A stretch of 64,000 nt of DNA from Gammaproteobacteria bacterium (GCA_965277405.1 OZ255726.1:896001-960000), one strand, 5' to 3'; shown: positions 5,492 through 41,474, numbered from the stretch's first letter. Notes: generated by a model not told the origin, from the sequence alone. Numbers and translations: made by a program.

Positions 5492-5774
5492 TGAAGCTCT
5501 GATTAATTCCATGATGGGCGAGACGGAGAAAAAACGCTGATGATAACTAGACGCAGCACTTGATAATACTGGTGGTATTATCAAGTGCTGCAACGACGTT
5601 AGCGCAGCGTTTTTTCCCGTCCTTCTGTTGAATATACAACGGTTTGATGGTAGCGGTACTTGCTGTGTTGCATCCCTTGGCGTATATGCTATGGCATGCG
5701 CCTGCGGAATGCGCCTTGCAATCATCAGCAATTGCCATCAAACTCGCCCCATCAGCGACTTAATCAGAGCTTCC
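5492..5774 (+). mobile_element. MITE, full copy, TSD TTAG/TTAG
   Basis: TIRs TGAAGCTCTGATTAA...TTAATCAGAGCTTCC; near-identical to copies at 13629, 16729, 36754 and 41192. Confidence 0.92.
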
Positions 5775-6123
5775 TTAGGCTATGATACTAGTAACTAGGA
5801 GCATTATTTCAAGTAATCAGAACTGCTTTGGCGAGGAATTGCTAATTATGATACTGATGTGTTGCTATTGCTATAAAAGTGTTAGCATGCTGTATTGTGA
5901 GAGTGGGCACAGTAACATTCACAATCCATCAATAAATAAGACGAAAGTTTTTTGATGAACTGTGATAGATTGCTCACTGTTAGTCGTCGTAGATAATATA
6001 AGTATGGGCTATGCGCAGGCTTGTGGGTGTTTCTACCTGAGTTATTCCCACAAACAGTTTTAGAAAATTTTACGATTCATTATATTTATGTACCAAAGAA
6101 AACCAATGTCCTTTGCCAATAAT

Positions 6124-7440
6124 ATGCGTATCAACAAGCTGTGTATTCAAACGATTATTGCGTTGACGGTGATGGTGTTTGGGCATGGAGTTTATGCGGA
6201 AGATAATGCCATCACAATTCAAATTTCTAAAGGCATTGTCGCACCAGTTACTATGGCAATTTCTCCATTTTTTCGTGCTGCAGGCATTGATGCGAATATT
6301 AATGTGGTTGATGTCATCAGGCAAGATATGCGCTTAAGTGGCGAGATTGTGGTATTGCCAGCGAATAAGTATTTAAGTTTGCCAAGCCGCGCTGATGAAG
6401 TGTTTTGGAGCGATTGGGAGAATATTGATGCAGAGTATTTATTGATTGGTCGTGTCCGCAAAGACGGAGCCAACCATCGCGTAGAATATGAATTATTCGA
6501 TGTTTTTGGTCGGCGTACAATCGGCGACGAGTATTTAATTTTTACCAAAAAAAATGTTCGGTCGGTCGGTCATTTGATTTCTGATTATATCTATAAAGAA
6601 ATCACTGGGCTACCAGGAGTGTATTCAACAAAATTGGCATATGTGCTAATTGATGGGAAACGAGAGACTCACCCAACATTCCTTTTGCAGATTTCCGACT
6701 ATGACGGCAAACGTGCCCAGACTATTTTAAAATCAAAACAGCCAATTATTTCGCCAACGTGGGCTCCCAATGGCTATGACATTGCGTATGTGTCGTATGA
6801 GCGCGGTCAGTCAAATATTTTTAGCCAAAACGTGCGCACAGGAAAGCGGCAGATCATTACTTGGTTTAAAGGCTTGAATAGTTCTCCAGCATGGTCGCCA
6901 GATGGCAAAAAACTTGCAATTGTGCTGTCCCGTGGTGCCAATGCAGATATTTATTTATATACCTTTGCCAACAAAAAATTTACCCGATTGACGAAGCATC
7001 TGGGGATTGATACGGAGCCTAGTTGGTCGGCAGATAGCAACACCTTGTTGTTTACCTCAGAACGTGCTGGCGGATCACCGCAGATTTTTAAATTGAATTT
7101 AACGAATAAAACTATTCACCAAATAACAAGCGAGGGTCAGTATGCAACCCATGCGCGCTACAGCAATGGCGGTCGTGCCATTGTATATATTAAGAAGATT
7201 GGCAATGTGTATAAATTAGTCCACCATAATTTAGCTACACGAGAAATAAAGCCGCTTGGCAATAGCCGCGATTATGATGAATCACCAAGCGTTTCTCCAA
7301 ATGGCAATAGAGTAATATTCTCAACAAAAATAAACGGGCGTAGTGTGTTAAAGATAGTCTCAGTAGACGGCACTGTTGAACATACACTGCCGTTTAAGAA
7401 AGGCGAAGTGCTTGACCCAGCTTGGTCTGGTTATCGATAA
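6124..7440 (+). CDS. tolB: Tol-Pal beta-propeller protein TolB
   Basis: Signal peptide, H..SD.IY..ITG..G, and repeated SP.WSPDG/DTEPSWS PD40 blades. Confidence 0.93.
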   Translation: MRINKLCIQTIIALTVMVFGHGVYAEDNAITIQISKGIVAPVTMAISPFFRAAGIDANINVVDVIRQDMRLSGEIVVLPANKYLSLPSRADEVFWSDWENIDAEYLLIGRVRKDGANHRVEYELFDVFGRRTIGDEYLIFTKKNVRSVGHLISDYIYKEITGLPGVYSTKLAYVLIDGKRETHPTFLLQISDYDGKRAQTILKSKQPIISPTWAPNGYDIAYVSYERGQSNIFSQNVRTGKRQIITWFKGLNSSPAWSPDGKKLAIVLSRGANADIYLYTFANKKFTRLTKHLGIDTEPSWSADSNTLLFTSERAGGSPQIFKLNLTNKTIHQITSEGQYATHARYSNGGRAIVYIKKIGNVYKLVHHNLATREIKPLGNSRDYDESPSVSPNGNRVIFSTKINGRSVLKIVSVDGTVEHTLPFKKGEVLDPAWSGYR

Positions 7441-7467
7441 TAACTAGCGTGCAATACGCAAATAATA

Positions 7468-8619
7468 ATGACCGCAACACTGCGCCCAGTCCGCTTTATC
7501 ACCATTGGTTCTGCGATGATAGATATCATTGCGTTGATTGGTAAAGATGACATAGAAAAAGTATCGTTTACTAACGCAATAACAGCTTTTCTATTGGTTG
7601 AACCAGGCCGAAAAATAGAAGCAAAAAAAATATTTACCAATGTCGGGGGTGGTGCAATCAATACCGCTGTGTCAATGAAACGCCTCGGTGGTGATGGTGC
7701 GGCAATGGTGCGGATTGGTGATGATTTTGATGGCAAAAAAATAACGCAATTCCTAGAAAAACATGACATTGCTACACGGCTCATAATCACTGACGCAGCG
7801 CAGCAAACAGGCAGCGCTGTGTTGATTACAGCGCATGATTATAATAATGCTATCTATACCTATCGCGGTGCCAACACTGCATTTATTGCAGCAGAATTTG
7901 CCGCTAAAATTTTTTTAGATGTTGATGTGCTACATATTTGTCCGTTGAGTGGTCGATCTGCAAACCACCTACCAAGAATCATTCAGCAAGCGCGAGCGCA
8001 GCCAAATGTTTTTATTTCAGTGAATCCTGGAATTCGCCAAATGACAGCGCATGCTACTAAACTTTTTTCTCTTGTCGCTCAAATCAATCTGCTCGCGTGT
8101 AACGCGGTAGAGGCTGGAGTTTTAGCGCAGGCCATTGCTCATTTTCTGCATGAAGATATTAGCGAACACAGCATAAAAAAACGCCATGTTGATATCAATA
8201 CAGCATGCAAACTTTTGCATACAGGCGCCCCAGTCGGCACAACTGGCCAGACTATTGATGTGCTATGGTTGATGCAAGTGCTCCTCAAGCAAGGACTTGA
8301 ATATGGCTTGATAACCGATGGCAGCAACGGCGCGTATTTATACAGCAAAAGCGGTATTTGGTATCAACCATCGCTGCTGAGTAAGGGGATTCGCGGCACA
8401 GCAGGGGCGGGGGATGCGTATATATCCACAGTAGTATATTTATTGAACACAGGGCTAGCACCTGAGTTAGTTGTTGCGTATGCTGCCATGAATGCGGTCA
8501 ATGTTATCGAACATTTAGACACTCACTCTGGATTATCGTCGCTAGCAAACTTGCAATTACAACGTGATGAAAACACTCCATCGCCGCAGTTTATTTGTTT
8601 TACGCATACACCGGGTTAA
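7468..8619 (+). CDS. PfkB-family carbohydrate kinase
   Basis: GGGAINTA, G.D..G and GTAGAGDAY signatures. Confidence 0.85.
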   Translation: MTATLRPVRFITIGSAMIDIIALIGKDDIEKVSFTNAITAFLLVEPGRKIEAKKIFTNVGGGAINTAVSMKRLGGDGAAMVRIGDDFDGKKITQFLEKHDIATRLIITDAAQQTGSAVLITAHDYNNAIYTYRGANTAFIAAEFAAKIFLDVDVLHICPLSGRSANHLPRIIQQARAQPNVFISVNPGIRQMTAHATKLFSLVAQINLLACNAVEAGVLAQAIAHFLHEDISEHSIKKRHVDINTACKLLHTGAPVGTTGQTIDVLWLMQVLLKQGLEYGLITDGSNGAYLYSKSGIWYQPSLLSKGIRGTAGAGDAYISTVVYLLNTGLAPELVVAYAAMNAVNVIEHLDTHSGLSSLANLQLQRDENTPSPQFICFTHTPG

Positions 8620-8623
8620 CGCT

Positions 8624-9919
8624 ATGACTACTGAATTGTTGTCGCCTGCAGGCACCCTCAAGCATTTGCAATATGCCATAGCATATGGCGCAGATGCAGT
8701 ATATGCTGGGCAGCCACGATATAGTTTACGCGTACGCAATAACTCATTTAATAAAATTGAACATATCAAAACAGGTATAGCAACCGCGCATGCCCAAGGA
8801 AAGTTATTTTTTTTAGCGAGCAATATTGCCGCGCATAATGACAAAGTTAAAACCTATATTCGCGACTTAGAGCCAATCATTGCCTGTCGTCCAGATGCGC
8901 TGATTATGTCTGATCCAGGGCTTATTATGCTGGTTCGTGAACGCTGGCCAGAGCAAGTCATCCATCTGTCAGTACAAAGCAATGTTGTCAATTACCAAGC
9001 GGTGACGTTCTGGCAGAACATCGGCGTGCAGCGCATTATTTTATCCCGTGAGTTATCGCTAGATGAGATTCGTGAAATCCGCCAACTATGCCCAGATATT
9101 GAATTAGAAGTATTTGTCCACGGTGCGCTGTGCATGGCGTATTCTGGTCGCTGCTTGTTGTCTGGATATTTTAATCATCGCGATGCAAATCAAGGCGCGT
9201 GCACCAATGCATGCCGTTGGAAATACGATACCTTTGCGACAAATAAAACAGCAAGTGGCGATTACGTGAAACAGCACGACCCCGTCGCTATCGAAGAAAA
9301 AACGCGTCCTGGTGAATACATGATTGCTGACGAAGATGAACACGGCACGTATATTATGAATTCAAAAGACCTGCGTGCCATCGAGCATGTCCACCAACTA
9401 TGCCGCATTGGTATAAATTCACTCAAAATTGAAGGGCGGACAAAGTCGTATTATTATGTAGCAAGAACCGCACAATTATACCGACGAGCAATCCACGCCG
9501 CTGAACAAGGTATCCCGTTCGACCCACAATGGCTATTCGAATTAGACAAACTGGCGAATCGTGGTTATACAGAAGGTTTTTACCGCAGGCACACCCCAGC
9601 AGATGAGTTGCAAAACTACGAACAGGGTAGTTCGCAAAACTTTAACCAGCAATTTGTTGGTGAAATTACTGATGTCATGGAAAAAGAATTGACGATTGAA
9701 GTCAAAAATAAGTTTGTTGTCGGCGACACATTAGAAGTCATCTCACCTACAGGCAATCATCAATTTGTGCTGGATTCAATGCGCGATAAAAACGGCATCG
9801 CCACAACTGCAGCGCTCGGCTCTGGGCATTTGGTGACTATTCCAAATCCAACAGGAATTGCTGATATACAATATGGCTTATTAGCGTGTAATCGTAACAA
9901 AATGGAACAGGCAGCATGA
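8624..9919 (+). CDS. trhP: U32-family prephenate-dependent tRNA hydroxylation protein TrhP (YegQ)
   Basis: ELLSPAG, YGADAVYAGQPRYSLRVRNN, VHGALCMAYSGRCLLSGY, CTNACRW, SLKIEGRTKS. Confidence 0.93.
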   Translation: MTTELLSPAGTLKHLQYAIAYGADAVYAGQPRYSLRVRNNSFNKIEHIKTGIATAHAQGKLFFLASNIAAHNDKVKTYIRDLEPIIACRPDALIMSDPGLIMLVRERWPEQVIHLSVQSNVVNYQAVTFWQNIGVQRIILSRELSLDEIREIRQLCPDIELEVFVHGALCMAYSGRCLLSGYFNHRDANQGACTNACRWKYDTFATNKTASGDYVKQHDPVAIEEKTRPGEYMIADEDEHGTYIMNSKDLRAIEHVHQLCRIGINSLKIEGRTKSYYYVARTAQLYRRAIHAAEQGIPFDPQWLFELDKLANRGYTEGFYRRHTPADELQNYEQGSSQNFNQQFVGEITDVMEKELTIEVKNKFVVGDTLEVISPTGNHQFVLDSMRDKNGIATTAALGSGHLVTIPNPTGIADIQYGLLACNRNKMEQAA

Positions 9920-10287
9920 GCAACAGACAACAACCAACTCCGCGCAGTGAGCGCCGCGAAAAAATCGCCAGTTTGATACAAAAAACACTCGCTCCATTGC
10001 TGCAACAATCGCATATTATTGGCATTGAATTGTTGAGTATTCATTATGTGCGGATGAATAAAGATTTAAGCATTGCAACTGTATATGTCGATAGTTTTGA
10101 TCTCGATAAAGATATGGCAGTGGTATGTAAGCAATTGAACGCACACAGTTATGTGTTGCGCCGACAATTAGCGACTCGCGTGGCGCTAAGACGCATACCT
10201 GAACTACGCTTTGCTATTGACGCATCGCTGACGCGTGGTAATCGAATTGAGAGTATTATCGACAACTACCAAGCGTTGCAAGAGTGA
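9916..10287 (+). CDS. rbfA: Ribosome-binding factor A
   Basis: DLSIATVY, LRRIPELRF..D.S motifs; lies upstream of truB. Confidence 0.9.
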   Translation: MSNRQQPTPRSERREKIASLIQKTLAPLLQQSHIIGIELLSIHYVRMNKDLSIATVYVDSFDLDKDMAVVCKQLNAHSYVLRRQLATRVALRRIPELRFAIDASLTRGNRIESIIDNYQALQE

Positions 10288-11198
10288 ATGGCTTTATTTG
10301 TGTAGACAAACCACAAGGATGCACCTCAAGCCAAGTAGTCGTCAAAATTAAGCGCTTGTTACGCAATTTTGACCCCATCCAACACCGAAAAATAAAAGTC
10401 GGCCACACTGGGACGCTTGACCCCATGGCAACTGGCGTGTTACTAGTGGCAATTGGCAAAGCCACCGTGCTCAGTGATTTTTTTTTGCATGGCGAGAAAA
10501 CCTATCGAGCGATACTGCAGCTAGGTTGCGCAACAACGACTGGAGACAGCGAGGGCGCAGTCATGCAGCGACAAATAATACCGCCGTACGATCTGCAAAT
10601 ACTCCAAAATATCGCGCAACAACTGCAAGGGACACAACAGCAAATTCCGCCGATGTATTCGGCCTTAAAACATAATGGCAAGCCGCTGTATGTATACGCA
10701 CGAGCAGGTGAAACTATTCCTCGCAAACCTAGACAAATCACTGTACACCATCTTGAGATACAGCCAGGGGTGAATACACACACCATAGCCATTACCGTGC
10801 ATTGTTCAGGGGGAACCTATGTGCGGGCATTGGCAGAAACCATTGCGCATAATATTGGCACATGTGGTCATTTAACGGCATTGCGGCGTATTAAAAGCGG
10901 TAATATTAGTATCAAGCAAGCATATTCAATTGATTATGTCGCCAAGCAAATTGCAGCGGGAATGGTGGATGACTTGCTGATGCCGATGAATATAATTACA
11001 CAATACATCCCTTGTATTAAAGCGGATAAACACCAGTTAGCACCAATTGCAAAAGGGCAGGCGATTACCATTCCAAATAAAATATCGCATGGTAGAGTAG
11101 CGCTGATTTTGCAACCAGAGAACGAAGTGGTTGCGTTATGTGACAACAAGGCGGATGGGATTTTTCCCAAACGCCTACTTCAACCGGAATTGCTGTAA
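10284..11198 (+). CDS. truB: tRNA pseudouridine-55 synthase
   Basis: DKPQG, KVGHTGTLDPMATGVL, QIPPMYSALK, CSGGTYVR. Confidence 0.96.
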   Translation: MNGFICVDKPQGCTSSQVVVKIKRLLRNFDPIQHRKIKVGHTGTLDPMATGVLLVAIGKATVLSDFFLHGEKTYRAILQLGCATTTGDSEGAVMQRQIIPPYDLQILQNIAQQLQGTQQQIPPMYSALKHNGKPLYVYARAGETIPRKPRQITVHHLEIQPGVNTHTIAITVHCSGGTYVRALAETIAHNIGTCGHLTALRRIKSGNISIKQAYSIDYVAKQIAAGMVDDLLMPMNIITQYIPCIKADKHQLAPIAKGQAITIPNKISHGRVALILQPENEVVALCDNKADGIFPKRLLQPELL

Positions 11199-11248
11199 AT
11201 ATGCATGGTAATGATGGTTTTTTTGGAAAGCATATTTAGGAGATAACA

Positions 11249-11518
11249 ATGGCACTTTCGTTTGAAGAAAAACGCGAAATTGTTGAACAATACGGTAAAA
11301 CCGCAACAGATACTGGCTCGTCCAAAGTGCAAATAGCTTTGCTAACTGCAGACATTAATAAACTGCAGGACCATTTTAAAAGACAAGGCAAAGATCACCA
11401 TTCTCGTCGTGGACTGATTCGCAAAGTAAATCAAAGACGAAAACTACTGCAATACCTGAAAAACTCAAGCATCCAAGCGTATGGCGAAATTATCCGCGCA
11501 CTTGGACTACGCCGCTAG
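11249..11518 (+). CDS. rpsO: 30S ribosomal protein S15
   Basis: [25 protein letters not shown]; AGGAG RBS. Confidence 0.97.
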
Positions 11519-11528
11519 GACATACAAC

Positions 11529-13628
11529 ATGACTCAAAATTCAATTAATTTTAATACCCAAACTGTCTCTTTTGCATTTGGTGACCAAACAATTTCTCTT
11601 GAAACCGGCAGAATTGCACGTCAAGCAAGCGGGGCCGTGCTGGCAACAATGGGTGGAACTGCAATATTGGCAACAACAGTTGTTTCCAAACGCGAAAGCC
11701 GTTTTGACTTTTTCCCGTTGACGGTGAATTATCAAGAAAAAATCTATTCTGCTGGAAAAATTCCAGGTGGTTTTTTCAAACGCGAAGGACGTCCAAGCGA
11801 AAAAGAAACGTTGACATCACGGTTGATTGACCGCCCAATTCGTCCATTGTTTCCAAGCGGATACATGCAAGAAGTGCAAGTCGTTTGTACAGTGATGTCT
11901 GCGGACAAAAACACCAATCCTGATATATTAGCGATGATTGCCGCCTCTGCGAGTTTGTGTATTTCAGGCGCTCCTTTTCAAGGCCCGATCGGCGCTGCGC
12001 GGGTCGGTGTTGGTGGTGATGGTTCGTATATTCTGAACCCATCATATGATGACATGGGTAAGTCATCGTTGGATATGGTCGTGGCAGGCAGCCAAGATGC
12101 AATTTTAATGGTCGAATCTGAAGCCAGCGAACTTGGCGAAGAACATATGCTTGAGGCAGTGATGTTTGCCCATGAACAAATGCAAACTGCAATAGCCGCA
12201 ATACAGGAATTGGTTGTCAAAGTTGGTAACCCCTCAAGTAAATGGGAAGCGCCAGCAACAGACGCAGCATTGGTTGATGGCGTAACTGCCAAGTTTGCAG
12301 AAAAAATTGCAGCTGCATATACCACCAGCGACAAACAGCAACGTAGCGAGCAACTCGATACAATTCGCCAACAAATTCATAGCGAATTTGACACAGAAGA
12401 CAGCAGCAACGCTGGTGAAATTGACTTGATTATAAAGTCAATTGAAAAGTCATCAGTGCGCCAGCGTTTGATTCGAGGCGAGCCACGGATTGACGGACGA
12501 GATTTAAAAACAGTTCGACCGATTGCCATTGAAATTGGTGTGCTACCGAATACACACGGCAGCGCATTGTTTACCCGTGGTGAAACACAGGCAATTGTTG
12601 TCAGTACGCTCGGTCCTGTAAAAAGCGCACAAATTATTGATGCGCTTGAAGGTGAATACCGTGATGGATTTATGTTGCATTATAATTTTCCGCCATTTTG
12701 CGTTGGTGAAACAGGAATGATGGTTGGACCCAAGCGCCGTGAGATTGGTCATGGACGGTTAGCAAGAAGAGGTATTGCTGCGGTGTTGCCACCACAAGAG
12801 CAATTTCCATATACGATTCGTGTGGTTTCTGAAATTACTGAATCGAATGGTTCAAGTTCTATGGCAAGTATTTGCGGCACCAGTCTTTCATTAATGGATG
12901 CTGGTGTGCCAATTAAAGCCGCAGTTGCTGGGGTGGCGATGGGATTAGTAAAAGAGGCTGAAGGACATGCAATTATTACCGACATCCTCGGTGATGAAGA
13001 TCACTTAGGCGATATGGACTTTAAAGTTGCCGGAACTGAAAAAGGTGTGACTGCGCTGCAAATGGATATTAAAATTAGCGGAATTACTCGAGAAATTATG
13101 GAAGAAGCGTTGACACAGGCGCGTGAAGGACGCTTACATATTCTTGGTGAAATGAACAAAGTCATTACCAAATCACGGGATCAGCTTGCTGCGTCTGCGC
13201 CAACATTGCTGACATTAAAAATCAAGCAAGATAAAATTCGTGATGTTATTGGTAAAGGTGGTGCAGTAATCAGACAAATGATAGAAGATAGCGGTGCGAC
13301 AATTGATATAGCTGATGACGGTATGGTGCAAGTGTATGGAGAAGGTCGTGATTCAGCAGAAGCTGCGATTCAAATGGTCAAAGACATAGTTGCAGAAGCT
13401 GAAGTAGGGCAACAAATTACAGGTACAGTCCGCTCGATTGTTGATTTTGGCGCATTCGTTAACATTCTGCCAAACACTGATGGCTTGCTGCATATTTCTG
13501 AAGTATCAAAACGACGTATCCAAAATGTCAATGAATTCTTAAAAGAAGGACAGAAAATTGAGGTAATTGTCAAAGAAGTTGACCCGCGCGGGCGTATTAA
13601 GCTCAGTTTAGTGAATATTTTTGACTAA
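11529..13628 (+). CDS. pnp: Polyribonucleotide nucleotidyltransferase
   Basis: [45 protein letters not shown] and S1 domains. Confidence 0.98.
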
Positions 13629-13914
13629 GGAACCTCTGATTAATTCCATGATGGGCGAGACGGAGAAAAAACGCTGATGAAACTTAAGCGCAGTGCGCAG
13701 ATAATACTGGTGGTATTATCAAGTGCTGCAACGACGTTAGCGCAGCGTTTTTTTTCCGTCCTTCTATTGAATATATGATGGTTTGCCTACAAGCGGTACT
13801 TGCTGTGTTGCATCCCTTGGCGTATATGCTACGGCATGCGCCTACGGAATGCGCCTTGCAATCATCAGCAATTGCAGGCAAACTCGCTCCATCAGCAAGT
13901 TAATCAGAGGTTCC
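13629..13914 (+). mobile_element. MITE, full copy, inserted at the pnp stop (TSD CTAA/CGAA)
   Basis: GGAACCTCTGATTAA...TTAATCAGAGGTTCC; the left TSD contains the pnp TAA. Confidence 0.92.
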
Positions 13915-14017
13915 CGAAGCATTGCTATGGTTCACATTGACAGGATGGAATAAACTAGCAGTCATACATAAACTCACTTATCAAAGGGCTGTAATGTTGG
14001 GGGTAGTCACTTTTTTT

Positions 14018-14284
14018 ATGAAGGAAAAACAAAAAAACAAACAATTAATTCAGCCGTTTCTGCAGCAACGGTTTGAAGAATTTTTCGCAGCACTTGGTGA
14101 TGAGAAAATGCCGAGTCTGTATACAACAGTCATGCGCCAATGTGAAATTCCTCTGATTCGCGCCGCACTCAAACATTGTAATGATAATAAATCAAAAACT
14201 GCTTGTTTGCTTTCTGTCAGCCGAGTAACGCTGCGCAATAAAATGCATAAATACAGTATTGAAAGCAGCGCAAATAGCTCATAG
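14018..14284 (+). CDS. fis: Fis-like DNA-binding protein
   Basis: LY..VM...E.PLI...L.....N..K.A.LL...R.TLR.K...Y HTH_8 pattern. Confidence 0.8.
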   Translation: MKEKQKNKQLIQPFLQQRFEEFFAALGDEKMPSLYTTVMRQCEIPLIRAALKHCNDNKSKTACLLSVSRVTLRNKMHKYSIESSANSS

Positions 14285-14288
14285 GCAT

Positions 14289-14334
14289 GGAAACTCTGAT
14301 TAAGTCGCTCCATGATGGGAAAATCAGAGTTTGC
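14289..14334. repeat. 46-bp minimal MITE derivative (two TIRs forming a hairpin)
   Basis: GGAAACTCTGATT-AAGTCGCTCCATGATGGGAA-AATCAGAGTTTGC; the loop joins subterminal sequence from both ends of the element. Confidence 0.7.
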
Positions 14335-14336
14335 GT

Positions 14337-15674
14337 ATGAATACCAACCAATTTGACATCATAGTTATTGGCGCAGGATCAGCAGGCGTACGCGCTGCGC
14401 GTGTTGCCGCAGCACTAGGGCGGTCTGTTGCTATTGTAGAAGCAGATAAAGTTGGTGGCACCTGCGTCAACGTTGGCTGTATTCCCAAAAAATTCTACGC
14501 ATACGCTGGTGCTTTTCGGCACGACCTCGCCGTTATGCAAGGATATGGCTGGGATACAACTGCGTCATTTAGTTGGGATAGGCTGCGCGAGAATAAGACC
14601 AATGAAATCACGCGGTTGAATGGCATCTATAACAACATGCTCAAAGATGTAACGTTGCTGCATGGCTTGGCAACATGTGTTGATGCGCACACCATTAGTG
14701 TCGCTGGCAACCAATATTCCGCGAAATATATTATTATTGCAACTGGTGGAACACCATTCGTCCCGCAATTTCCAGGCAACGGCCTAGTTGAAACCTCAGA
14801 CACTATTTTTGATATTGGCGCATTACCCAAAAAAATCATTGTTGTCGGCGGCGGGTATATTGCCGCAGAATTTGCCAGTATTTTTAATGGTTTAGGCTGT
14901 GAAACCACATTGTTATACCGTGGTAAGCAAATATTTAGGGGCTTCGATAGCCAAATAGCACGGTTCACTCAACAACAAATGATAGAACACGGAATCGACA
15001 TCCGCTTACACAGCGTTGTTGCTGCCATCAAGCAAAATGATGCCAGCTTACAGGTAGTCGTAGCTGATAAAACCATCAACGCTGATATCGTGTTACATGC
15101 CACAGGTCGCTCAGCAAATACGGCAAAACTTGCATTGGAGAATGCCGGGGTGCTGCTGAACGACAATGGCAGTATTCCTGTCGATGAGCATTACCGCACC
15201 AATCAAAGCCATATCTACGCTATTGGCGATATTCTTTCCCATTTGCAGCTTACACCAGTTGCAATTAAACAGGCGATGCACGTTATCAGCCATATAACTA
15301 ACCAAACAACGCATCCGCTTGACTATGCAACTATACCTACAGCCGTGTTCTGTACGCCGAATATTGGCACTGTTGGTCTCGGTGAAGAAGATGCAATCAA
15401 GCGGTATGGCAGTGCAGACATTGAGATTTTTTTCAGTAATTTTCGCGCGCTAAAAATCACCATGTCCGCTGCGACTGACAAAACAATGACTAAATTGGTT
15501 GTGCAAAAATCCACACAGAAAATACTGGGAATTCATATGGCTGGTGACCATGCTGGTGAGGTTATTCAAGGGTTTGCGGTGGCGGTGCAAATGGGAGTTA
15601 GCAAACAACAGCTCGACGCAACAGTGGGCATCCACCCGACCACTGCAGAAGAATTTGTTACAATGCGCAACTAA
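14337..15674 (+). CDS. gor: Glutathione-disulfide reductase
   Basis: GAGSAG, GGTCVNVGCIPKK, GGGYIA, LTPVA, IHPTTAEEFVTMR. Confidence 0.96.
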   Translation: MNTNQFDIIVIGAGSAGVRAARVAAALGRSVAIVEADKVGGTCVNVGCIPKKFYAYAGAFRHDLAVMQGYGWDTTASFSWDRLRENKTNEITRLNGIYNNMLKDVTLLHGLATCVDAHTISVAGNQYSAKYIIIATGGTPFVPQFPGNGLVETSDTIFDIGALPKKIIVVGGGYIAAEFASIFNGLGCETTLLYRGKQIFRGFDSQIARFTQQQMIEHGIDIRLHSVVAAIKQNDASLQVVVADKTINADIVLHATGRSANTAKLALENAGVLLNDNGSIPVDEHYRTNQSHIYAIGDILSHLQLTPVAIKQAMHVISHITNQTTHPLDYATIPTAVFCTPNIGTVGLGEEDAIKRYGSADIEIFFSNFRALKITMSAATDKTMTKLVVQKSTQKILGIHMAGDHAGEVIQGFAVAVQMGVSKQQLDATVGIHPTTAEEFVTMRN

Positions 15675-16558
15675 TGCGTGGTTTGTATTTACTGGCACCT
15701 GCAAAATTAAATTTATTTCTCCATGTGTTTGCACCACGTAGTGATGGCTATCATCCGTTACATACGTATTTTCAATATATTGGGTTATTCGATGAACTGT
15801 ATTTTGCTATACTACCAACCACACGTTTGCAGCCACAAATAACGATAACTATGCAAGGATGTGGTACGGCAATACAAAATAATATCATCAACCAAGCTGC
15901 GCAATTGTTGTATGCCTACATTACAACACCCAAGCCAAATATTCACGTTGCCGTTTGCAAACATATCCCAATTGGCGCAGGGCTAGGCGGTGGTAGTAGT
16001 AACGCGGCAACGACACTCCATGCGTTAAATATGTTGTGGAAATTGCAATTGCCGCAACAACAAATACAAGAATTATCACTCGAACTTGGCGCAGACCTGC
16101 CGTTTTTTGTCAAAGGAGAAAGTGGCTTTGCTAGCGGAATTGGTGAAGTCATGACAGCGTATGCATATCCAGATTTGTATTGTGTAGTGGTTTTGAGTGG
16201 AATTCATTGCGTTACAAGTGCAGTGTTTTTGCATAAACAATTGACAACCAAAAAGCAGATGACAACAATACCGCCCGCCTATCAAGAGCTAACTATCAAT
16301 GAGGTGGTTGGACTGGGAAACGATTGTATTGACGCAGCGTTTGCTGAATATCCAAAGCTCAAACAGGTATACAGTATAATCAGCAACTATGGTCAGTTTG
16401 CAATGACTGGAACAGGCTCCACGTTTTTTGCAGTATACCAAAGCAAACAACAAGCGATGCAGCTGGCAAAGCGAATATGCGATGAGCGTGCACTCAACGC
16501 AATAGTAGTACCAAGTATTGCACGATGGCACACGTATTGGGGTGTAGCCAAGTGGTAA
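15674..16558 (+). CDS. ispE: 4-diphosphocytidyl-2-C-methyl-D-erythritol kinase
   Basis: APAKLNLFL, KHIPIGAGLGGGSSNAA, LGADLPFF, MTGTGS. Confidence 0.95.
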   Translation: MRGLYLLAPAKLNLFLHVFAPRSDGYHPLHTYFQYIGLFDELYFAILPTTRLQPQITITMQGCGTAIQNNIINQAAQLLYAYITTPKPNIHVAVCKHIPIGAGLGGGSSNAATTLHALNMLWKLQLPQQQIQELSLELGADLPFFVKGESGFASGIGEVMTAYAYPDLYCVVVLSGIHCVTSAVFLHKQLTTKKQMTTIPPAYQELTINEVVGLGNDCIDAAFAEYPKLKQVYSIISNYGQFAMTGTGSTFFAVYQSKQQAMQLAKRICDERALNAIVVPSIARWHTYWGVAKW

Positions 16559-16612
16559 GGCAGCGGGTTTTGATCCCGCCATGCGGAGGTTCGAATCCTC
16601 CCACCCCAGCCA
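16538..16612 (+). tRNA. tRNA-Gln(TTG)
   Basis: TGGGGTG acceptor, GCGGG-TTTTGAT-CCCGC anticodon arm, GGTTCGAATCC, CCA end; overlaps the last 21 bp of ispE. Confidence 0.96.
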
Positions 16613-16728
16613 ATTTAATAATGACTGCTTCACACTGAACTCTGTATCAAAAAGGACGCGCATTGACATTGATCAAGCGCAACTCAAACTTAATAATGGC
16701 TGCTGCGCTCACTGCATAAGTTCCCTAG

Positions 16729-17013
16729 GGAAGCTCTGATTAACTCGCTGATGGAGCGAGTTTGCCTGCAATTGCTGATGATTGCAAGGCGCATTTCGCA
16801 GGCGTATGCCGTAGCATATACGCCAAGGGATGCAACACAGCAAGTACCGCTTGTAGGCAAACCATCATATATTCAATAGAAGGACGGGAAAAAACGCTGC
16901 GCTAACGTCGTTACAGCACTTGATAATACCACCAGTGTTATCTGCGCACTGCGTCTAGTTATCATCAGCGTTTTTTCTCCGTCTCGCCCATCATGGACTT
17001 AATCAGAGCTTCC
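16729..17013 (-). mobile_element. MITE, full copy, reverse orientation, flanks CTAG/TTTG
   Basis: Reverse complement of the 13629 copy with intact TIRs. Confidence 0.92.
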
Positions 17014-17513
17014 TTTGTTAAGGCGCGAGCAGTTTACTGGCGACCACTGACTTGCATAGATTGTAAAGTTTTTTATCATATCTTCCAGTCTGTCGCCTGC
17101 ATTGCTGCTGCTTTTAATTGATCTCTATGTTTTGCGTGATTTACCTCTGTATTCGATCTTTTTTTTATACTGAACATGGATACACTTGCGTATCTGTCCC
17201 AGCTGGGGCATGTTATACACCCTGATTTTGGTCTCGGCCTGCATCAAGGTCACAGATGTGAGCGTTGATTGTAACGCCTGCATAAATTTGGTATCGTTGC
17301 GCTGCAGTCAGTCTGCTAGATGTCTTTGGCATGGTGATTTCACATTGGCTGAATGACCGTGAGATCCACTCACTGACCGTCAACATTCAATGTGTCGCGC
17401 TAGCGATTGAAGTCTACGTTTGCATGAAATAATCTAATTGCGTTGTTAATACTGTCAACACATCAGCTATTTCGTGAGAATGTAAGTATAACTACTTTGT
17501 CTAAGGAGGGATA

Positions 17514-19445
17514 ATGAGTAAAAAAGCAATTCCTAATGCTACAAAAGAGCGAGCATTAATCAACCCAGCGCAATATCAACAAATGTATGATGAATCTATT
17601 CAGGATCCTGAAGCATTTTGGCATAAACAAGGTAGGCGCATAGATTGGATAACACCATATACGCAAACCAAAACAACATCATTTGCACAAGATAATGTGT
17701 CGATTGAATGGTACCGCGATGGTGGATTAAACGTTGCAGCGAATTGCCTAGATAGGCATTTAGAGCAACGCGGTGATCAAGTTGCAATTATATGGGAAGG
17801 CGATAACTCCCAAGAAAAACGCACAATAACATACACTGAATTACACCATCTTGTCTGCCAATGTGGCAATGCACTGCAGCGGATGGGGGTCGCTAAAGGT
17901 GACGTTGTAACAATATATATGCCAATGATCCCAGAGGCAGCAATAGCCATGCTTGCATGTGCCAGAATTGGCGCGGTGCATTCTGTCATCTTTGCTGGGT
18001 TTTCTCCAGAAGCGATTGCCGGAAGAGTGGAAAATAGCGCGTCTACACTCATTATCACCGCGGATAGCGGCCCACGAGCTGGTAAGCAAACACCACTCAA
18101 AGCAAATGTTGATACAGCTATAGCAAAACTCGGGTTTGCTGTGCAAACCCTGGTGGTTAAGCGCTCAGGAGAACCCGTTGCTTGGGATGATACGCGTGAT
18201 CATTGGTGGCACGACATGCTGGACTCTGCCGACTGCCCGCCTGTAGAAATGAACGCAGAAGACCCTTTATTTATTTTGTATACTTCTGGATCTACTGGAG
18301 CACCCAAAGGACTAACGCATACATCGGGCGGTTATTTGGTCTACGCATCGATTACATATGAATATATTTTTGACTACCACCCGGGTGACATTTTTTGGTG
18401 CAGCGCCGATGTTGGATGGATAACTGGGCATTCATATATAGTGTATGGACCGCTTGCCAATGGTGCGACGACAGTGATGTTTGAAGGTGTACCGACATAT
18501 CCTGACACCAGTCGTTGGGGGCAAATTATTGAACAATACGGCGTAACAGTTTTTTATACGGCGCCGACAGCCATTCGCGCGTTAATGGCAGATGGAGATA
18601 ATGTATTAGGCAACAGCGATTTATCTTCATTAAAATTATTAGGCACCGTTGGTGAACCAATAAACCCAGAAGCATGGGAATGGTATAGCCGAGTTTTTGG
18701 CAATGGCAAGTTAGCAATTGTAGACACTTGGTGGCAAACAGAAACTGGCGCCGCGCTAATATCACCTCTTCCTGGGGCAATCGAAGCCAAACCTGGGTCG
18801 GCAACGAAGCCGTTTTTTGGCATTCAACCTGCATTAGTCGACGCAGATGGGGTGATTTTGGAGGGTGCTGCGGCTGGAAATTTAGTGCTGCTCGATTCTT
18901 GGCCAGGTCAAGCCCGCAGCATTTGGGGAGACCACCCACGCTTTGTGGCCACATATTTTTCAACATATGCGGGTAAATATTTTACCAGCGATGGCGCGCG
19001 TCGCGACGAAGACGGGTATTATTGGATTACTGGTCGCGTCGACGATGTTATGAATATATCTGGTCATCGGCTTGGCACAGCAGAAGTCGAGAGTGCGCTG
19101 GTGGCGCACCCGCTCGTTGTCGAGGCGGCGGTTGTTGGTTTTCACCACGATATTAAGGGTCAAGCAATTTATGCATACGTTACGCTCAAGCACGGAGTAG
19201 CAGATACGGACGCCCTCAATGCCGAGTTGAAGCAGTGGGTGCGCCAAGAGATTGGTGCTATCGCCACACCAGAGACTATTCAATGGGCACCAGGGCTGCC
19301 CAAAACCCGCTCTGGAAAAATTATGCGCAGGATATTGCGTCAAATTGCTAAAAATGAATATGAGCAACTTGGAGATATCAGCACACTCGCAGATACAAGT
19401 GTTGTCAGCAGCTTAATTGCAGAACATAAATACATCAGCGGCTAA
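17514..19445 (+). CDS. acs: Acetyl-CoA synthetase
   Basis: [35 protein letters not shown]; AAGGAGG RBS. Confidence 0.97.
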
Positions 19446-20330
19446 CAGCAATCTTAGCAATTGCCCTAAGCGTTTGTATAAACCTTGCTGCTTTTCCGTT
19501 TGTCTGCGGCCTGTATGGTTTGGTAAAAACGTGCTTGATTTGACAAGCATCAAGATATCGATTTACGAACTTTGGTCGATATGCAGGACCGTTGCCTGTC
19601 ATCAGCCGTTGCACCGCTATTCCCAAAGATGAAAAATGCTCCAATGATCGGTGCATAAACCCCTGAGTCGTTGCCTTTTTCTCATTAGGAAGCACCGCCA
19701 CAAACGCCCATCGACTATGGTCATCAATACCAACATGGACGCACTCAATACCATGGCCTGTATTTGCTGTTGCAGGAGCACCAAATTTATGCCCAGGTGG
19801 AGTAAAACGTTGCAGTTTCTTGATGTCCAGATGCAGCATGTCGCCAGGGTGCTCATATCAATGCGCTTTTTCTCTTGTTAAGGTCTTTTTTGTAAGGCAC
19901 AGCCGTCTCAAAATTTTGGTGACAGTGGCGTATGCCAATTGCAAATACTTGGCAATGCTCCGTGCATTCATTTGTGACTCTAAATAGAGTTTTTGGATGC
20001 GTTGAGCCAAGATCTCAGCGAGTTTAGCTGGGTTTGAAATTGGCCTGCTGGAAAGATATTGTACAGTGCAGATGTTCCACCTGATGTATAGCGTCTGCGC
20101 CACTTGTAAACAGTTAGTAGCGTAATAGTAGCGAAATGGCAAAATCGTTGGCTACGCGATTCACAGGGTGCTTGTCGACAAGCACCCTGTGAACCATAAC
20201 TTCTCGACTATGAAACGTTGTTTTGGCACAATGATGTGGGTTGTTCATGCTGTACTCCTTTGTTTAGTAACTAATACAGTACCAGCTTGTTAGTTAGCTG
20301 ATGTGTGAACACACCTCCGTAGCATTTACA
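19446..20330 (-). mobile_element. IS481-family element, degenerate (frameshifted transposase, 3' truncated)
   Basis: LHLDIKKL, IDDHSR, TGNG (normally TDNG), KPYRPQTNGKAARFIQT (normally KAERF); ATG at 20248 with AAGGAG; TGT-starting end at 20330. Confidence 0.88.
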
Positions 20331-36742: not shown

Positions 36743-36753
36743 ACGTATGCTAA

Positions 36754-37037
36754 GGAACCTCTGATTAAGTCCATGATGGGCGAGACGGAGAAAAAACGCT
36801 GATGATAACTAGACGCAGTGCGCAGATAATACTGGTGGTATTATTAAGTGCTGCAACGACGTTAGCGCAGCGTTTTTTCCCGTCCTTCTGTTGAATATAC
36901 AACAGTTTGATGGTAGCGGTACTTGCTGTGTTGCATCCTTTGGCGTATATGCTACGGCATACGCCTGCGGAATGCGCCTTGCAATCATCAGCAATTACCA
37001 TCAAACTCGCTCCATCAGCGACTTAATCAGAGGTCCC
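36754..37037 (+). mobile_element. MITE, full copy, TSD CTAA/CTAA, between the plsC stop and the hemA start
   Basis: GGAACCTCTGATTAA...TTAATCAGAGGTCCC; the right TSD holds the plsC TAG (minus strand). Confidence 0.92.
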
Positions 37038-37757
37038 CTAATGAATGGAGCTACAAGTAGCTTCGATCCAGGTTCTTAGTTGTTGTGTTGCTAACTTACT
37101 ATCTGGCATTGGTTGTATATGCGGACCAAAAATCACGCGGATAGTTCCAGGGTATTTAGTTATTTGATGCGCGGGCCAACGCGACCCAGCATTGTGTGCA
37201 AATGGAATAATTGGGCATTTGTTTTCATGCGCCAGTTTTGTCGCGGTGCGGGTAAATGGTCCAAGTTCAGGTGCATAACGTCTGGTTCCTTCAGGGAAAA
37301 TGAGTAAATTATGACCTTGAGATAAGTGGACACTTCCTTGCGCAATAACTTGGCGAAGTGCCTGTGTCTTATTTTTTCTAATCAGTGTTACTGGTTTGAG
37401 CAATGCTAATGCCCAACCAAATATTGGAATCCAAATCAGCTCATACTTTAATACACTGACCATTGGCATTGCAAATGATTGAATAACCAGTGTTTCCCAT
37501 GGGCTTTGGTGGTTACCGGCAAACACACAGGCACGATGCGCTTGCAATGCGGTGCGGATATGTTCTAAGCCATCGATTTGCATGGAAATATTGCAGCTGA
37601 GTTTTAGCCAAAATAACACAAACCGCGTGAGTACAGCAGGCACTATAAAGCGTTTTTTGAACGGCAGCATCCAACCAAATAGCAGCGATGCCACGCACAC
37701 TATAGTGACCGCTACCACGTAGCCGATATAAAAAATTATTGAACGGAAAATCAACAT
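37038..37757 (-). CDS. plsC: 1-acyl-sn-glycerol-3-phosphate acyltransferase
   Basis: NHQSPWE and IFPEGTR motifs. Confidence 0.9.
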   Translation of the reverse strand: MLIFRSIIFYIGYVVAVTIVCVASLLFGWMLPFKKRFIVPAVLTRFVLFWLKLSCNISMQIDGLEHIRTALQAHRACVFAGNHQSPWETLVIQSFAMPMVSVLKYELIWIPIFGWALALLKPVTLIRKNKTQALRQVIAQGSVHLSQGHNLLIFPEGTRRYAPELGPFTRTATKLAHENKCPIIPFAHNAGSRWPAHQITKYPGTIRVIFGPHIQPMPDSKLATQQLRTWIEATCSSIH

Positions 37758-37761
37758 TTAG

Positions 37762-37966
37762 AGAATCTCTGATGTAATTGCTAGTGAAACACTGTATGTG
37801 TCGCCAATTAGTTGCGGTAACATCGCCGCTACAACAGCAGGGCAAGATTTACTGTGAACGGCTGGTGTGCATGGGCTTGCCAAGGCAGCACCATTTACAG
37901 CAAACCGCCGTGCTTTTCAACCTGTAAAGTTGCCTCACACCCATCATGGGCTTAATCAGCGCTTCT
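37762..37966. mobile_element. Degenerate MITE-family element with an unrelated interior
   Basis: TTAG|AGAATCTCTGATG...CCCATCATGGGCTTAATCAGCGCTTCT; fills the plsC-yaaA spacer. Confidence 0.55.
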
Positions 37967-37968
37967 CT

Positions 37969-38745: not shown

Positions 38746-39147
38746 TTGCTATACCATCGAGCAGTCTTCAAAATGAACAAACAAGCATTGCGCTTCGCTA
38801 CGAATGCGTCGGGGGGCTATGTTGCCACATTTGCTTAGGCTGTCATCGCTTTGACGCCAATTGTGTTGGATATTTACCAAGATATATTTGCTCGATAGAT
38901 GTATTTGCTCGATAGCTGCCGCTAAAATTCGAAAAACACCTGATATTTGTCCGTTATTCAGTACTCCAATGAGCTAATGCTGGCTGTAAAACTCCTTGCC
39001 AAGTTATTTTTTTAACAAAAAAAATAATTTTTAGCAAATTTGTGCATTTTTGGTATCATGAACACGCTCAATATTGGTTTGCAACATTGCTGCGTCAAGA
39101 ACATCAAATGTGGTCAGTTTTTCGAGATTTGTTAGGGTATATTTAAA

Positions 39148-40014
39148 ATGAATGGAAAGTTTTTATATTACCAAGGTGTTTACGCAGAGGCAGAAAAATA
39201 CCCATTTTTGCTGGCTCATGCGCTGCATTATGCAACGTCCGTTTTCGAAGGGATACGAGTTTACAATGGCGCACCATTTTTGCTCGAAGAGCATCTCTCA
39301 CGGCTGATAACCTCTTGCGAACTCATCGGCATTGATTGTCCGGCAACGGTCCAAGAACTATCCAAGATCTGCTACAACCTTATCGACAAGACTGGGGTGC
39401 AAAATGCCTACCTAAGACCGGTGGTATTCAAAGGCGGTCCCGATCTTGGCGTGTATGCACCCAAAAACACGATTGAGTTAAGTGTCATCATCTGGGAATG
39501 GCCATCAGTCTTCGGCGCAGCTGCGGTTTCTAAGGGAATATCGCTAACTTCAGATATCCCTTATAGACGACCGCCACCAACGTGTTTTCCAACTCAAGCA
39601 AAGAGTTCAGCAGCGTATCTCATAGGCGCAATTAACCGGCAAAAAGCGGAAAACGACGGCTTCAATGACGCCCTACTTTTCACCCACGCAGGGATGGTTG
39701 CGGAAGCAACTGGCGCCAATATTTTTTTAGTCAATGGCAACACTGTTACTACACCACCTGCAAATGATTTCCTCAATGGCCTTACCCGCCAGACGGTGAT
39801 TGGATTGCTGGCAAGCGGTCAAGTTGAGGAAAGAGAAATCACGTTGGATGATGTTAAATCGGCAGATGAGGTCTTTCTCACTGGCACTGCCTACGAAGTA
39901 ATTGGCGTCTCAAAAATTGACGATTGTGAAAAATCCGTTGGTCAATTTACCAGCAACATTCGCAATGCCTACCTCAAACTTACCAAAACAACCAACCTTA
40001 AAGGCGCGGCCTGA
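39148..40014 (+). CDS. Class IV PLP aminotransferase (IlvE-like, accessory copy)
   Basis: LHYATSVFEGIR, YLRP, AK....Y, AEATGANIF, L.G.TR, ADEVFLTGTA. Confidence 0.9.
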   Translation: MNGKFLYYQGVYAEAEKYPFLLAHALHYATSVFEGIRVYNGAPFLLEEHLSRLITSCELIGIDCPATVQELSKICYNLIDKTGVQNAYLRPVVFKGGPDLGVYAPKNTIELSVIIWEWPSVFGAAAVSKGISLTSDIPYRRPPPTCFPTQAKSSAAYLIGAINRQKAENDGFNDALLFTHAGMVAEATGANIFLVNGNTVTTPPANDFLNGLTRQTVIGLLASGQVEEREITLDDVKSADEVFLTGTAYEVIGVSKIDDCEKSVGQFTSNIRNAYLKLTKTTNLKGAA

Positions 40015-40028
40015 ACACGACAGAATGT

Positions 40029-40172
40029 ATGATGGCTGCTAACACCAAAATTCGCAAAATTTACACGCTTGGCCCTGGAGGCACAAACTGCGCAGCAGCG
40101 GCTGCTGAACTCTGTCGATCTGGTGGAGTAGCAGCCTGTATACCAACATTACCTGCAGCCAAAGCCAAATGA
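40029..40172 (+). pseudogene. Prephenate decarboxylase (BacA/AerD-like) N-terminal relic
   Basis: 47-codon ORF containing IYTLGPGGTNCAAAA, which resembles the TLGP.GT....AA start of prephenate decarboxylases/dehydratases. Confidence 0.5.
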
Positions 40173-40212
40173 AAAAGCACTTTCTGCACGACGCAAACCT
40201 GCGGGGCTGCTG

Positions 40213-41169
40213 ATGATAGGTATTAGTCACCCTTTTTCAAAACACATGCGGCTGTTGGCGCTGACGATCAGTATTCTTGCCTGCTTCACAGCAAGCTGGG
40301 TGTTGGCTAAAAACATCATCGAAAGTGCCCCTGCGTATGCTTCGGCTACCGGCCGGGTGTTGGCGACTAGTCTGTTCCTTTGGGCTTTTCTCCTACTCCG
40401 TCCTGGCGAACGCGTAAAGTCGATGGTAGTGTTGCGCCGCTGGCCAGCTATCATCGTATTAGCTTTGCTGGGTTTTGTCCTGTATTCGCTACTGACATTT
40501 CTCGCCTTGACGGTGCTAAATCCATCGGATCTGGGAATGACGCTGGCGCTTATACCTGGGTTTACCTACGTGCTTGGGTTGGCTTTTTTTAGCGACCAAA
40601 TTCACCATCTCAAATTGCTCGGTGTTTCTTTGGCCAGCGGGGCGGCGCTATACTACACCACCAACGGCTTCCTAAGTTTGACAACAGCAGATGCTTTTGG
40701 AATCACAATGGCAGCGGGGGCGGCACTTAGCTATGCCCTGTATGGTTTAACGTATAAAAAGCTCATGGCAGACTTGCCCACAACAAGCGTGTTACCGTTT
40801 ATCACTGCCGTTGCTTTCCTCATGTTGCTACCCTGGTTGCTGTTTGTCAGCCCAGCAGAAAGGTCAATTGACCTTTGGACAGCTGCTAAATTGCTGATGC
40901 TCGGTGCTGGGCTGTCTGCGCCAGTATTCTTAATGTATCATGCCGTGCTTGATTTAGGCGGGGTGCTGTATGCAAATTCAATCGGAATTCTTGCGCCTTT
41001 TGCGATCTTACTCACCGAATGGGGCTGCGGCTATCGCAGTAGCGTCAGCCTAGGAGAACTAAGCGCGATGGCGATCTGTGCAGTCGGCGTCGCTTTAATT
41101 TTTAAAGACGCCGCCAGACCAAATCGCGTATCTGCGAACATCGCCGTATCTAACCGCCCCACTGATTAG
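40213..41169 (+). CDS. DMT/EamA-family transporter
   Basis: About ten hydrophobic helices in two EamA-like halves. Confidence 0.85.
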   Translation: MIGISHPFSKHMRLLALTISILACFTASWVLAKNIIESAPAYASATGRVLATSLFLWAFLLLRPGERVKSMVVLRRWPAIIVLALLGFVLYSLLTFLALTVLNPSDLGMTLALIPGFTYVLGLAFFSDQIHHLKLLGVSLASGAALYYTTNGFLSLTTADAFGITMAAGAALSYALYGLTYKKLMADLPTTSVLPFITAVAFLMLLPWLLFVSPAERSIDLWTAAKLLMLGAGLSAPVFLMYHAVLDLGGVLYANSIGILAPFAILLTEWGCGYRSSVSLGELSAMAICAVGVALIFKDAARPNRVSANIAVSNRPTD

Positions 41170-41191
41170 GATAATTTAGGAGGAATACTAT

Positions 41192-41474
41192 GGAAGCTAT
41201 GATTAAGTCCATGACGGGCGAGACGGAGAAAAAACGCTGATGATAACTAGACGCAGTGCGCAGATAATACTGGTGGTATTATCAAGTGCTGCAACGACGT
41301 TAGCGCAGCGTTTTTTTCCGTCCTTCTGTTGAATATATGATGGTTTGCTGCAGCGGTACTTGCTGTGTTGCATCCCTTGGCGTATATGCTACGGCATGCG
41401 CCTGCGGAATGCGCCTTGCAATCATCAGCAATTGCAGGCAAACTCGCTCCATCAGCGACTTAATCAGAGCTTCC
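41192..41474 (+). mobile_element. MITE, full copy, TSD CTAT/CTAT, inserted at the start codon of the ligase gene
   Basis: AGGAGGAATA-CTAT|GGAAGCTATGATTAA...CAGAGCTTCC|CTAT-GGGC. Confidence 0.93.

Follow-up and report, generated by a model that had tools for sequence, protein, structure and literature searches.

Is the fold of a repeat that is scattered through a bacterial genome kept by selection, or does it simply come with the sequence? The question was raised by a 64,000-nucleotide stretch of DNA from Gammaproteobacteria bacterium (GCA_965277405.1 OZ255726.1:896001-960000), called the window below, which was analysed together with the one-contig genome to which it belongs (2,174,577 bp, 44.8% G+C). 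The window carries several copies of a MITE (miniature inverted-repeat transposable element). An earlier note on this DNA had proposed, from compensatory changes and a UNCG tetraloop, that the MITE is a conserved folded RNA or single-stranded DNA. Our results confirmed this observation in part. The family, the fold and a concerted switch in one stem were real, the covariation of the terminal inverted repeats (TIRs) was not, and a folded RNA or single-stranded DNA kept by selection was not supported. We consider it probable that the element is an IS5-type MITE with an inherited potential to fold, in which the switch arose by templated quasi-palindrome mutation and was multiplied by amplification.

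The repeat family was defined in the window and in the genome. The 10-mer core of the repeat ends, CTCTGATTAA, was found 22 times in the window with at most one mismatch, compared to 3.6 expected, and none of 100 shuffles reached 22. A repeat finder sorted the window copies into families, and the window held seven full copies, three fragments and one mini element of about 46 bp. An iterated nhmmer scan of the genome gave 637 matches, which were reduced after overlap removal to 323, namely 171 full-length and 152 partial copies. Together they covered 67,059 bp, or 3.1% of the 2.17-Mb genome, with 89 full copies on the plus strand and 82 on the minus strand. Each full copy initially matched on both strands, because the left half of the MITE is about 60% identical, along its whole length, to the reverse complement of the right half. 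The orientation was unambiguous, with a median alignment score of 426 compared to 88 on the other strand. The length was 251-329 bp (median 287) in the 156 copies with both ends recognisable. The identity of a copy to its nearest neighbour had a median of 95.4%, and reached at least 98.9% in the top tenth. The family is dispersed with near-identical members, which marks it as recently active.

The class of the element was clear from its ends. The TIRs of the MITE were GGAAnCTCTGATTAAGTC, and the 4-nt flanks were identical in 64 of the 156 MITEs with both ends recognisable (TTAG in 31, CTAA in 19), TTAG and CTAA being one target site on opposite strands. A YTAR-type flank was present at 92 left and 100 right ends of the 156. 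YTAR is the target of the IS5 group, and the CTAA/TTAG duplication fits it. A resident 1.2-kb insertion sequence (IS) had the GGAAnCTCTGATTAAGTC ends and the CTAA/TTAG flanks in common with the MITE. Twelve IS copies of 1,208-1,239 bp carried an open reading frame (ORF) of 315-319 amino acids, and seven further copies carried shorter ORFs. The ORF matched the IS5 family transposase model NF033581 with 330.3 bits (cut-off 140), as well as PF01609 (106 bits) and DUF772 (69.5 bits), and the transposase shared 51-53% identity with plasmid-borne transposases annotated as IS5-family. The sequence common to IS and MITE was limited to the ends (18-20 bp). The PF01609 matches of the genome fell within the 1.2-kb IS copies and outside the MITEs, which have no transposase gene. 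The repeat is a non-autonomous IS5-family MITE of about 287 bp. Because ends and target are shared by MITE and IS, the MITE is likely to be mobilised in trans by the resident IS5-family transposase.

Folding was then considered on the reference copy (36754-37037). Its predicted RNA fold had an energy of -135.5 kcal/mol (z -13), and that of the opposite strand -130.9 kcal/mol (z -10). For 94 consensus pairs over all copies, 91.7% of the cells were paired, compared to 33-48% when the partners were slid by 1-3 columns. A set of 47 copies, made up of the seven window copies and, from the others, the 40 with the greatest mutual divergence (farthest-point sampling), gave 83.9% compared to 34-47% in the slid controls. 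According to these predictions, the TIR-closed fold with two arms of about 100 nt is a genuine property of the sequence on either strand. It is best read as a by-product of nested inverted repeats. The two-armed structure described in the earlier note was thus found as a fold, including its second arm, AAAAAACGCTG/CAGCGTTTTTT (36791-36801/36868-36878), which encloses the GATAATAC/GTATTATC apex (36825-36832/36838-36845). Its maintenance by selection was not borne out by the pairs, as described below. The inner stem and the ATGC-TACG-GCAT hairpin also exist, but they hardly vary and are uninformative on selection. The C(UACG)G form (GC-TACG-GC) was present in 97 of 171 copies, and the others had TACA (11), TAGGT (14), TATG (6) and more. 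These loop variants had no compensating change, and one loop sequence was not distinguishable from chance. At the Rfam gathering score, two tRNAs and the signal recognition particle RNA were the only matches in the 64-kb window, which holds seven full MITEs.

Covariation was investigated pair by pair. At TIR position 5, the six complementary cases from which covariation had been proposed were as described. One of them, the A:T case at 14289, was part of a class of its own, the mini elements of 46-52 bp. The full copies at 46130 and 52731 were mismatched at this position, and the covariation disappeared in the genome, where 73 of 156 copies were complementary compared to 67.5 expected for independent ends (G/C 2x2 chi-square p = 0.18). 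The two ends matched at position 5 in one of the 12 intact IS copies. TIR position 5 is a hypervariable, unconstrained position. In the case of the internal helices, nearly all pairs showed one Watson-Crick type. Both-sided change in at least three copies was seen in 7 of 94 pairs, with 4-11 in the slid controls. MAFFT misaligned the indel-rich 5' strand of arm 2, and the outer helix of this arm was therefore read by anchored extraction. Outside that helix, 107 double changes kept pairing and 70 broke it, where independent columns predicted 71.8:48.2. The ratio was 1.53 compared to 1.49 expected, and a few diverged copies raised the number in both classes about 1.5-fold. An excess of double changes in stems had been considered as a signal, and it was dropped because pair-breaking doubles were equally in excess over the column-independent expectation.

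Single changes gave a consistent result. Rare variants per column numbered 2.3-2.7 in stems and 2.9 in loops, and single rare transitions produced G.U and A.C equally (49 each). Common variants in arm 1 broke or weakened pairs in about 50 copies with the opposite side unchanged. At the 3' arm of its apex, a common variant in about 55 copies made an A.C mismatch with nothing compensating. One check that the earlier note had suggested, an alignment of all copies read by RNAalifold, did not bear out its proposal. The structure was empty for all 171 copies (MAFFT alignment), and for the 47 copies there were 11 pairs with -2.48 kcal/mol, a covariation term of -0.17 kcal/mol and no significant covariation. 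A pair counter applied to the 47 copies found 25 pairs with both-sided change. Shuffled alignments gave 19.8 ± 2.7, with 22 of 500 reaching the observed count, and slid controls gave 19-32. The covariation score of the counter was 0.088 compared to 0.084 (31 of 500 shuffles as high). Across its measures, 22-84 of 500 shuffles reached the observed values, which by the tool's own calibration lies within the range of unconstrained related sequences. Compensatory change was not above chance in the 91-110 tested pairs, with the arm-2 outer stem as the sole exception. The copies decay without regard to pairing. Detectable maintenance of the fold by selection in individual copies was not supported, because there was no excess of pair-keeping doubles, rare variants were unconstrained and the ends were independent at TIR position 5.

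A concerted switch was seen in no helix but the arm-2 outer stem. This switch, which the earlier note had described, lies between 36905-36915/36996-37006 and 13781-13791/13873-13883, and it holds genome-wide. The 5' strand of the stem is called D and the 3' strand F. Alleles were read in the 139 of 171 copies that had all four anchors, and 32 were left out. D = ATGG occurred with F = CAT in 19 copies and with AGG in two, and CCTA occurred with AGG in 27 and never with CAT. CTGC was found with AGG in 29 and CAT in six, and CGGC with AGG in 18 and CAT in 12. When paired by hand, ATGG/CAT formed an 11-bp stem, which was perfect in some copies and had one G.T in the majority form, in which the third base on the 3' strand is G. 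CCTA/AGG had one A.C mismatch, CTGC/AGG had a bulge, and CGGC paired about equally with either partner. The coupled classes were young and homogeneous, with nearest-neighbour identities of 97-99%, whereas the uncoupled CGGC class was old (91-95%). Because the coupled classes are young homogeneous subfamilies, the D/F association corresponds to roughly 1-3 events that were later multiplied.

We asked how far this association exceeded shared descent by permuting F inside clusters of similar backbones. With complete linkage, the observed coupling was reached in 0 of 3000 permutations at 5% cluster width, 10 of 3000 at 4% and 106 of 3000 at 3%. Complete linkage had replaced average linkage, which lumped 92 of 114 copies in one cluster, and its clusters cannot separate subfamilies differing by less than 2%. 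The backbone tree was poorly supported, and the 2-3 independent D/F contrasts on its supported branches gave no power. A linkage-equilibrium argument for selected coupling was also dropped, since young subfamilies merely have backbone alleles in common. The nature of the change stood out in one pair of copies. Their backbones were 1.3% apart, and about eight differing positions were concentrated in two pairing blocks that were mutually complementary, with about six differences outside both blocks. Template switching between non-identical inverted repeats is reported to homogenise arms and to yield multi-nucleotide mutations (PMC8604942, PMC7202029). The D/F switch looks like a templated quasi-palindrome mutation of this kind that was spread by amplification, and its template-switch origin is inferred from this pattern. 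Template switching had been named in the earlier note as the alternative to selection. It agrees with the single concerted change, the replacement of a complementary 3-nt block on each strand of one stem.

A course of events can be proposed from these results. The transposase of the co-resident 1.2-kb IS would recognise the 18-20-bp ends, move the MITE in trans and duplicate CTAA/TTAG. Since the interior consists of two related imperfect palindromes of about 100 nt, any single strand, RNA or DNA, should fold into a TIR-closed, multi-armed structure. This potential would pass on with the sequence, without detectable selection in single copies. Template switching between the arms would have placed the complementary 3-nt block change on the two sides of the arm-2 outer stem, possibly seeded by the GATGG/CCATC motif already present in the neighbouring closing helix. 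The switch may have arisen once or a few times, after which master copies would have been amplified into young subfamilies. Several findings weigh against this reading. The D/F coupling survived permutation within clusters to widths of 5% and 4% and faded only at 3%, and in part it may be more than shared descent. CGGC, which is compatible with both partners, was the allele occurring with both, which selection on pairing also predicts. G.T mismatches of arm 1 persisted in 140-159 of 171 copies, so templating is not frequent, as it would have erased them. As RNA, the top strand folded better in 154 of 171 copies (-122.4 compared to -113.3 kcal/mol), and in tandem gene contexts the top strand was co-oriented with the genes 51:29 (p = 0.018, from crude ORF calls and with several tests run).

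The last two findings would be expected if the MITE were a structured RNA co-transcribed with its neighbours, acting as a stabiliser of 3' ends, as a terminator-like hairpin or as the target of an RNase, and if selection at the RNA level kept the fold. The predicted fold of the MITE RNA is very stable, and G.U pairs numbered 11.2 on the top strand and 5.5 on the bottom. Nineteen of 156 MITEs directly abutted a gene stop codon that was part of the duplicated CTAA/TTAG (crude ORF calls), a target that includes TAA or TAG (for example, window 13625-13629 and 37038-37041). In seven further ORFs the end lay 11 nt within the TIR, where stops occur in two frames. Judging from the adjacency to stop codons, transcription of many copies as 3' ends or operon spacers is probable. 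Arm 1 consists of a stem between an A run and a T run and is terminator-like both ways. A simple terminator scan did not flag it, which is little informative because the stem exceeds the template of the scan in length and has more interruptions. There are also precedents in the literature: Correia-containing mRNAs are cut by RNase III and ERIC affects transcript levels (PMC10969869), and bcr1 shows compensatory changes (PMC3184786). These hints of an RNA-level effect are weak. Compensatory changes were not in excess, rare variants were as frequent in stems as in loops with G.U and A.C balanced, and the common arm 1 variants broke pairs without compensation. The orientation was opposite in 29 of the 80 tandem-context copies, and no Rfam family matched. 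The strand asymmetry is a single observation, because all copies have one common ancestor. We regard this explanation as unlikely. Relative to replication, MITE orientation had no bias (81:75).

Selection could instead act on the transposon and not on the host, if an intact arm 2 hairpin were needed for amplification, for example as folded single-stranded DNA in replication or transposition. The prolific young classes ATGG/CAT, CCTA/AGG and CTGC/AGG were all well paired and made up 75 of the 114 copies with F = CAT or AGG, mismatched combinations were rarer and older, and the coupling persisted in tight backbone clusters. However, the best-paired allele was not the commonest (19 copies compared to 27 and 29), there were also many old CGGC copies (34), whose outer stem has an internal loop, and no other helix was coupled. 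The ends on which DDE transposases of the IS4/IS5 type act are double-stranded, and these enzymes are not known to need internal hairpins. We regard a requirement in amplification as distinctly improbable. Plain co-inheritance of D and F in two or three subfamilies, with coincidental complementarity, is the most doubtful explanation of all. It would agree with the coupled classes being homogeneous young bursts, with just two independent contrasts on supported branches and with the marginal signal at the tightest cluster control. It leaves to coincidence that two 3-4-nt blocks about 85 nt apart became exact complements between copies only 1.3% apart in backbone, where an unrelated 3-nt change would fit its partner by chance in about 1 of 64 cases. 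A broader proposal is that the complementarity of the arm-2 outer stem is kept by some process specific to the folded element, either hairpin selection during amplification or recurrent templated repair within the hairpin. We consider it possible but rather doubtful. If true, the MITE would be a self-correcting palindromic transposon in which template switching at quasi-palindromes is naturally recorded, and there would be a benefit at the RNA level where its orientation is the co-transcribed one. Templated mutation followed by amplification, in an element whose fold is inherited, remains the reading that we prefer.

The element was compared with known systems. Its closest kind is the IS5-derived bacterial MITEs, which it resembles in its short length (251-329 bp), the lack of a transposase, the 18-20-bp TIRs of a resident IS and the 4-bp CTAA/TTAG duplication. 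It differs from them in the very high load (171 full copies, 3.1% of 2.17 Mb) and in an interior that is unrelated to the partner IS, with two related long palindromes and a loop minisatellite. Prokaryotic MITEs are described in a review as mostly intergenic with a strongly folding transcript (PMC10969869), and the present element is similar, its fold being predicted. As possible RNA hairpins, bcr1, Correia and ERIC would be the nearest analogues. The bcr1 element of the Bacillus cereus group is reported as a mobile repeat of about 155 bp with direct-repeat flanks, a predicted cruciform-like RNA, compensatory changes and transcription (Delihas 2011, PMC3184786). In contrast, compensatory change in our element was not above the independent-column expectation save in one helix, and there was no sequence relationship. 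Correia elements of Neisseria and ERIC/IRU elements of enterobacteria are said in the same review to be co-transcribed, to fold through inverted repeats and to have RNase III or RNase E effects on mRNA (PMC10969869). Their ends, size and transposase family differ, and in the Rfam scan, the one test of membership, the present MITE had no match.

The arm-2 switch resembles quasi-palindrome mutation by template switching, in which arms are reported to be made complementary by a multi-nucleotide change (PMC7202029, PMC8604942). In our case, the signature is carried by the switch in the arm-2 outer stem and by the fold-back mini elements of 46-52 bp, both read from end products only. Porphyromonas gingivalis is also reported to have a MITE that contains a minisatellite, in the form of a short tandem repeat that varies (PMC4596501). 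Here the unit is 9-10 nt in the arm 1 loop with 0 to about 4 copies, and the organism, sequence and position differ. The MITE is notable mainly for its load in the small genome of an isolated lineage. It is also a cautionary case. A palindromic mobile element seems to be a covarying structured RNA when few copies are read, and with all 171 copies the apparent covariation shrinks to one subfamily-defining, probably templated block change. In annotation, it matters as 3.1% of a small genome, as the point at which short-read assemblies break and as the neighbour of the stop codons of housekeeping genes such as pnp. The MITE offers a compact system for studies of IS5-type trans-mobilisation and of inverted-repeat mutagenesis.

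The element was also sought in other genomes. The lineage had no close relative among the genomes compared, and the MITE was not found in the 40 nearest genomes, which belong to the same class; the best result was a 22-nt end match in one of them (G015). An exact-pattern scan of GTDB representative genomes gave one chance match without an element, and that of metagenome contigs gave 0 matches; such scans would miss diverged relatives. The plasmid collection gave no MITE match. G015, a distant, high-G+C genome, held a different MITE of about 150 bp with the same 22-nt end and CTAA-type flanks (L086 1500-1665), many copies of which lay about 105 nt from contig ends. As the same 22-nt end occurs in G015, this type of TIR is far wider spread than the interior of the 171-copy MITE.

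The features of the window are collected in the table below.

Features of the MITE family in the window (positions counted from the first nucleotide of the window)
Feature	Position	Strand	Remarks
Reference full copy, 284 bp	36754..37037	+	CTAA duplication at 36750-36753 and 37038-37041; ATGG/CAT subfamily
Left TIR GGAAnCTCTGATTAAGTC and subterminal repeat	36754..36783	+	5' strand of the 27-pair closing helix; pairs with 37007-37036
Arm 1, 101-nt imperfect palindrome	36784..36884	+	Pairs essentially invariant or with one-sided variants
Arm 1 stem AAAAAACGCTG/CAGCGTTTTTT	36791-36801/36868-36878	+	Within arm 1
Arm 1 apex GATAATAC/GTATTATC	36825-36832/36838-36845	+	Also written GATAATAC/GTATTATT
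Central hairpin TGTTG-AATATA-CAACA, 16 nt	36889..36904	+	Only in copies with the CAAC allele
Arm 2, 102-nt imperfect palindrome	36905..37006	+	Outer stem GTTTGATGGTA (36905-36915) with TACCATCAAAC (36996-37006)
GC-TACG-GC hairpin of arm 2	36951-36958	+	Within arm 2
Right subterminal repeat and right TIR	37007..37037	+	3' side of the closing helix
Full copy	5492..5774	+	TTAG duplication; ATGG/CAT subfamily
Full copy	13629..13914	+	CCTA/AGG subfamily; exactly at the TAA stop (13626-13628) of a 715-aa PNPase-like ORF (11481-13628)
Full copy	16729..17013	-	CCTA/AGG subfamily; lies shortly downstream of the tRNA gene at 16538-16609
Full copy	41192..41474	+	CTGC/AGG subfamily
Full copy, older and diverged	46130..46421	-	TIR position 5 non-complementary (G opposite A); one loop minisatellite unit
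Full copy, most diverged of the window	52731..52999	+	TIR position 5 non-complementary (T opposite C)
Partial copy	59463..59683	-	Profile positions 1-187
Solo left end, 49 bp	44006..44054	+	Fragment
Solo right end, 53 bp	312..364	-	Fragment
Mini element, about 46 bp	14289..14334	+	Short loop between two TIR-like arms, each of which has A at position 5

The mini elements formed a class of 14 in the genome, each 46-52 bp long with two TIR arms round a loop of 7-16 nt. The arms were mostly of the right-end type, and in 11 of 14 elements both had the same base at TIR position 5. The mini elements have the look of fold-back copies made from one MITE end. Neighbouring MITE-IS and IS-IS pairs stood head to tail with a single common CTAA/TTAG, for example at L089 701-2220 (genome 53721-55236), and IS-IS junctions were located at genome positions 1249556/1249561, 1386361/1386366, 1422395/1422400 and 2030531/2030536. 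Insertion appears to favour the duplicated target beside an existing copy.

Two further regions of the MITE varied. The apical loop of arm 1 (alignment columns 106-145; in the window, seen in the copy at 46130-46421) held a minisatellite with a 9-10-nt unit of about GGGTCTTGT, which was present in 0 to about 4 units per copy (for example, at loci L101, L113, L106, L128 and L131). A block of arm 2 was either GCGGAATGCG or GCGGTTTGCG (columns 236-243 of the 171-copy alignment; region 36971-36981), and it was at times tandemly duplicated. This block and TIR position 5 varied even inside subfamilies that were 98-99% identical.

Among sequencing runs, window positions 5001-14900 were found in three DNA runs from one study (X1-X3) and in no RNA run. 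Short-read contigs of the three DNA runs were compared with window positions 1-20000. They broke at every MITE copy, so no polymorphism of filled and empty sites was readable from them. Run X2 had a handful of single-base differences, and it therefore came from a slightly different strain or clone. Over the whole genome, the cumulative GC skew was lowest near 463 kb and highest near 2,163 kb, which implies either very unequal replichores or a disturbed skew. Of the 1,586 crude ORFs, 948 were located on the inferred leading strand.

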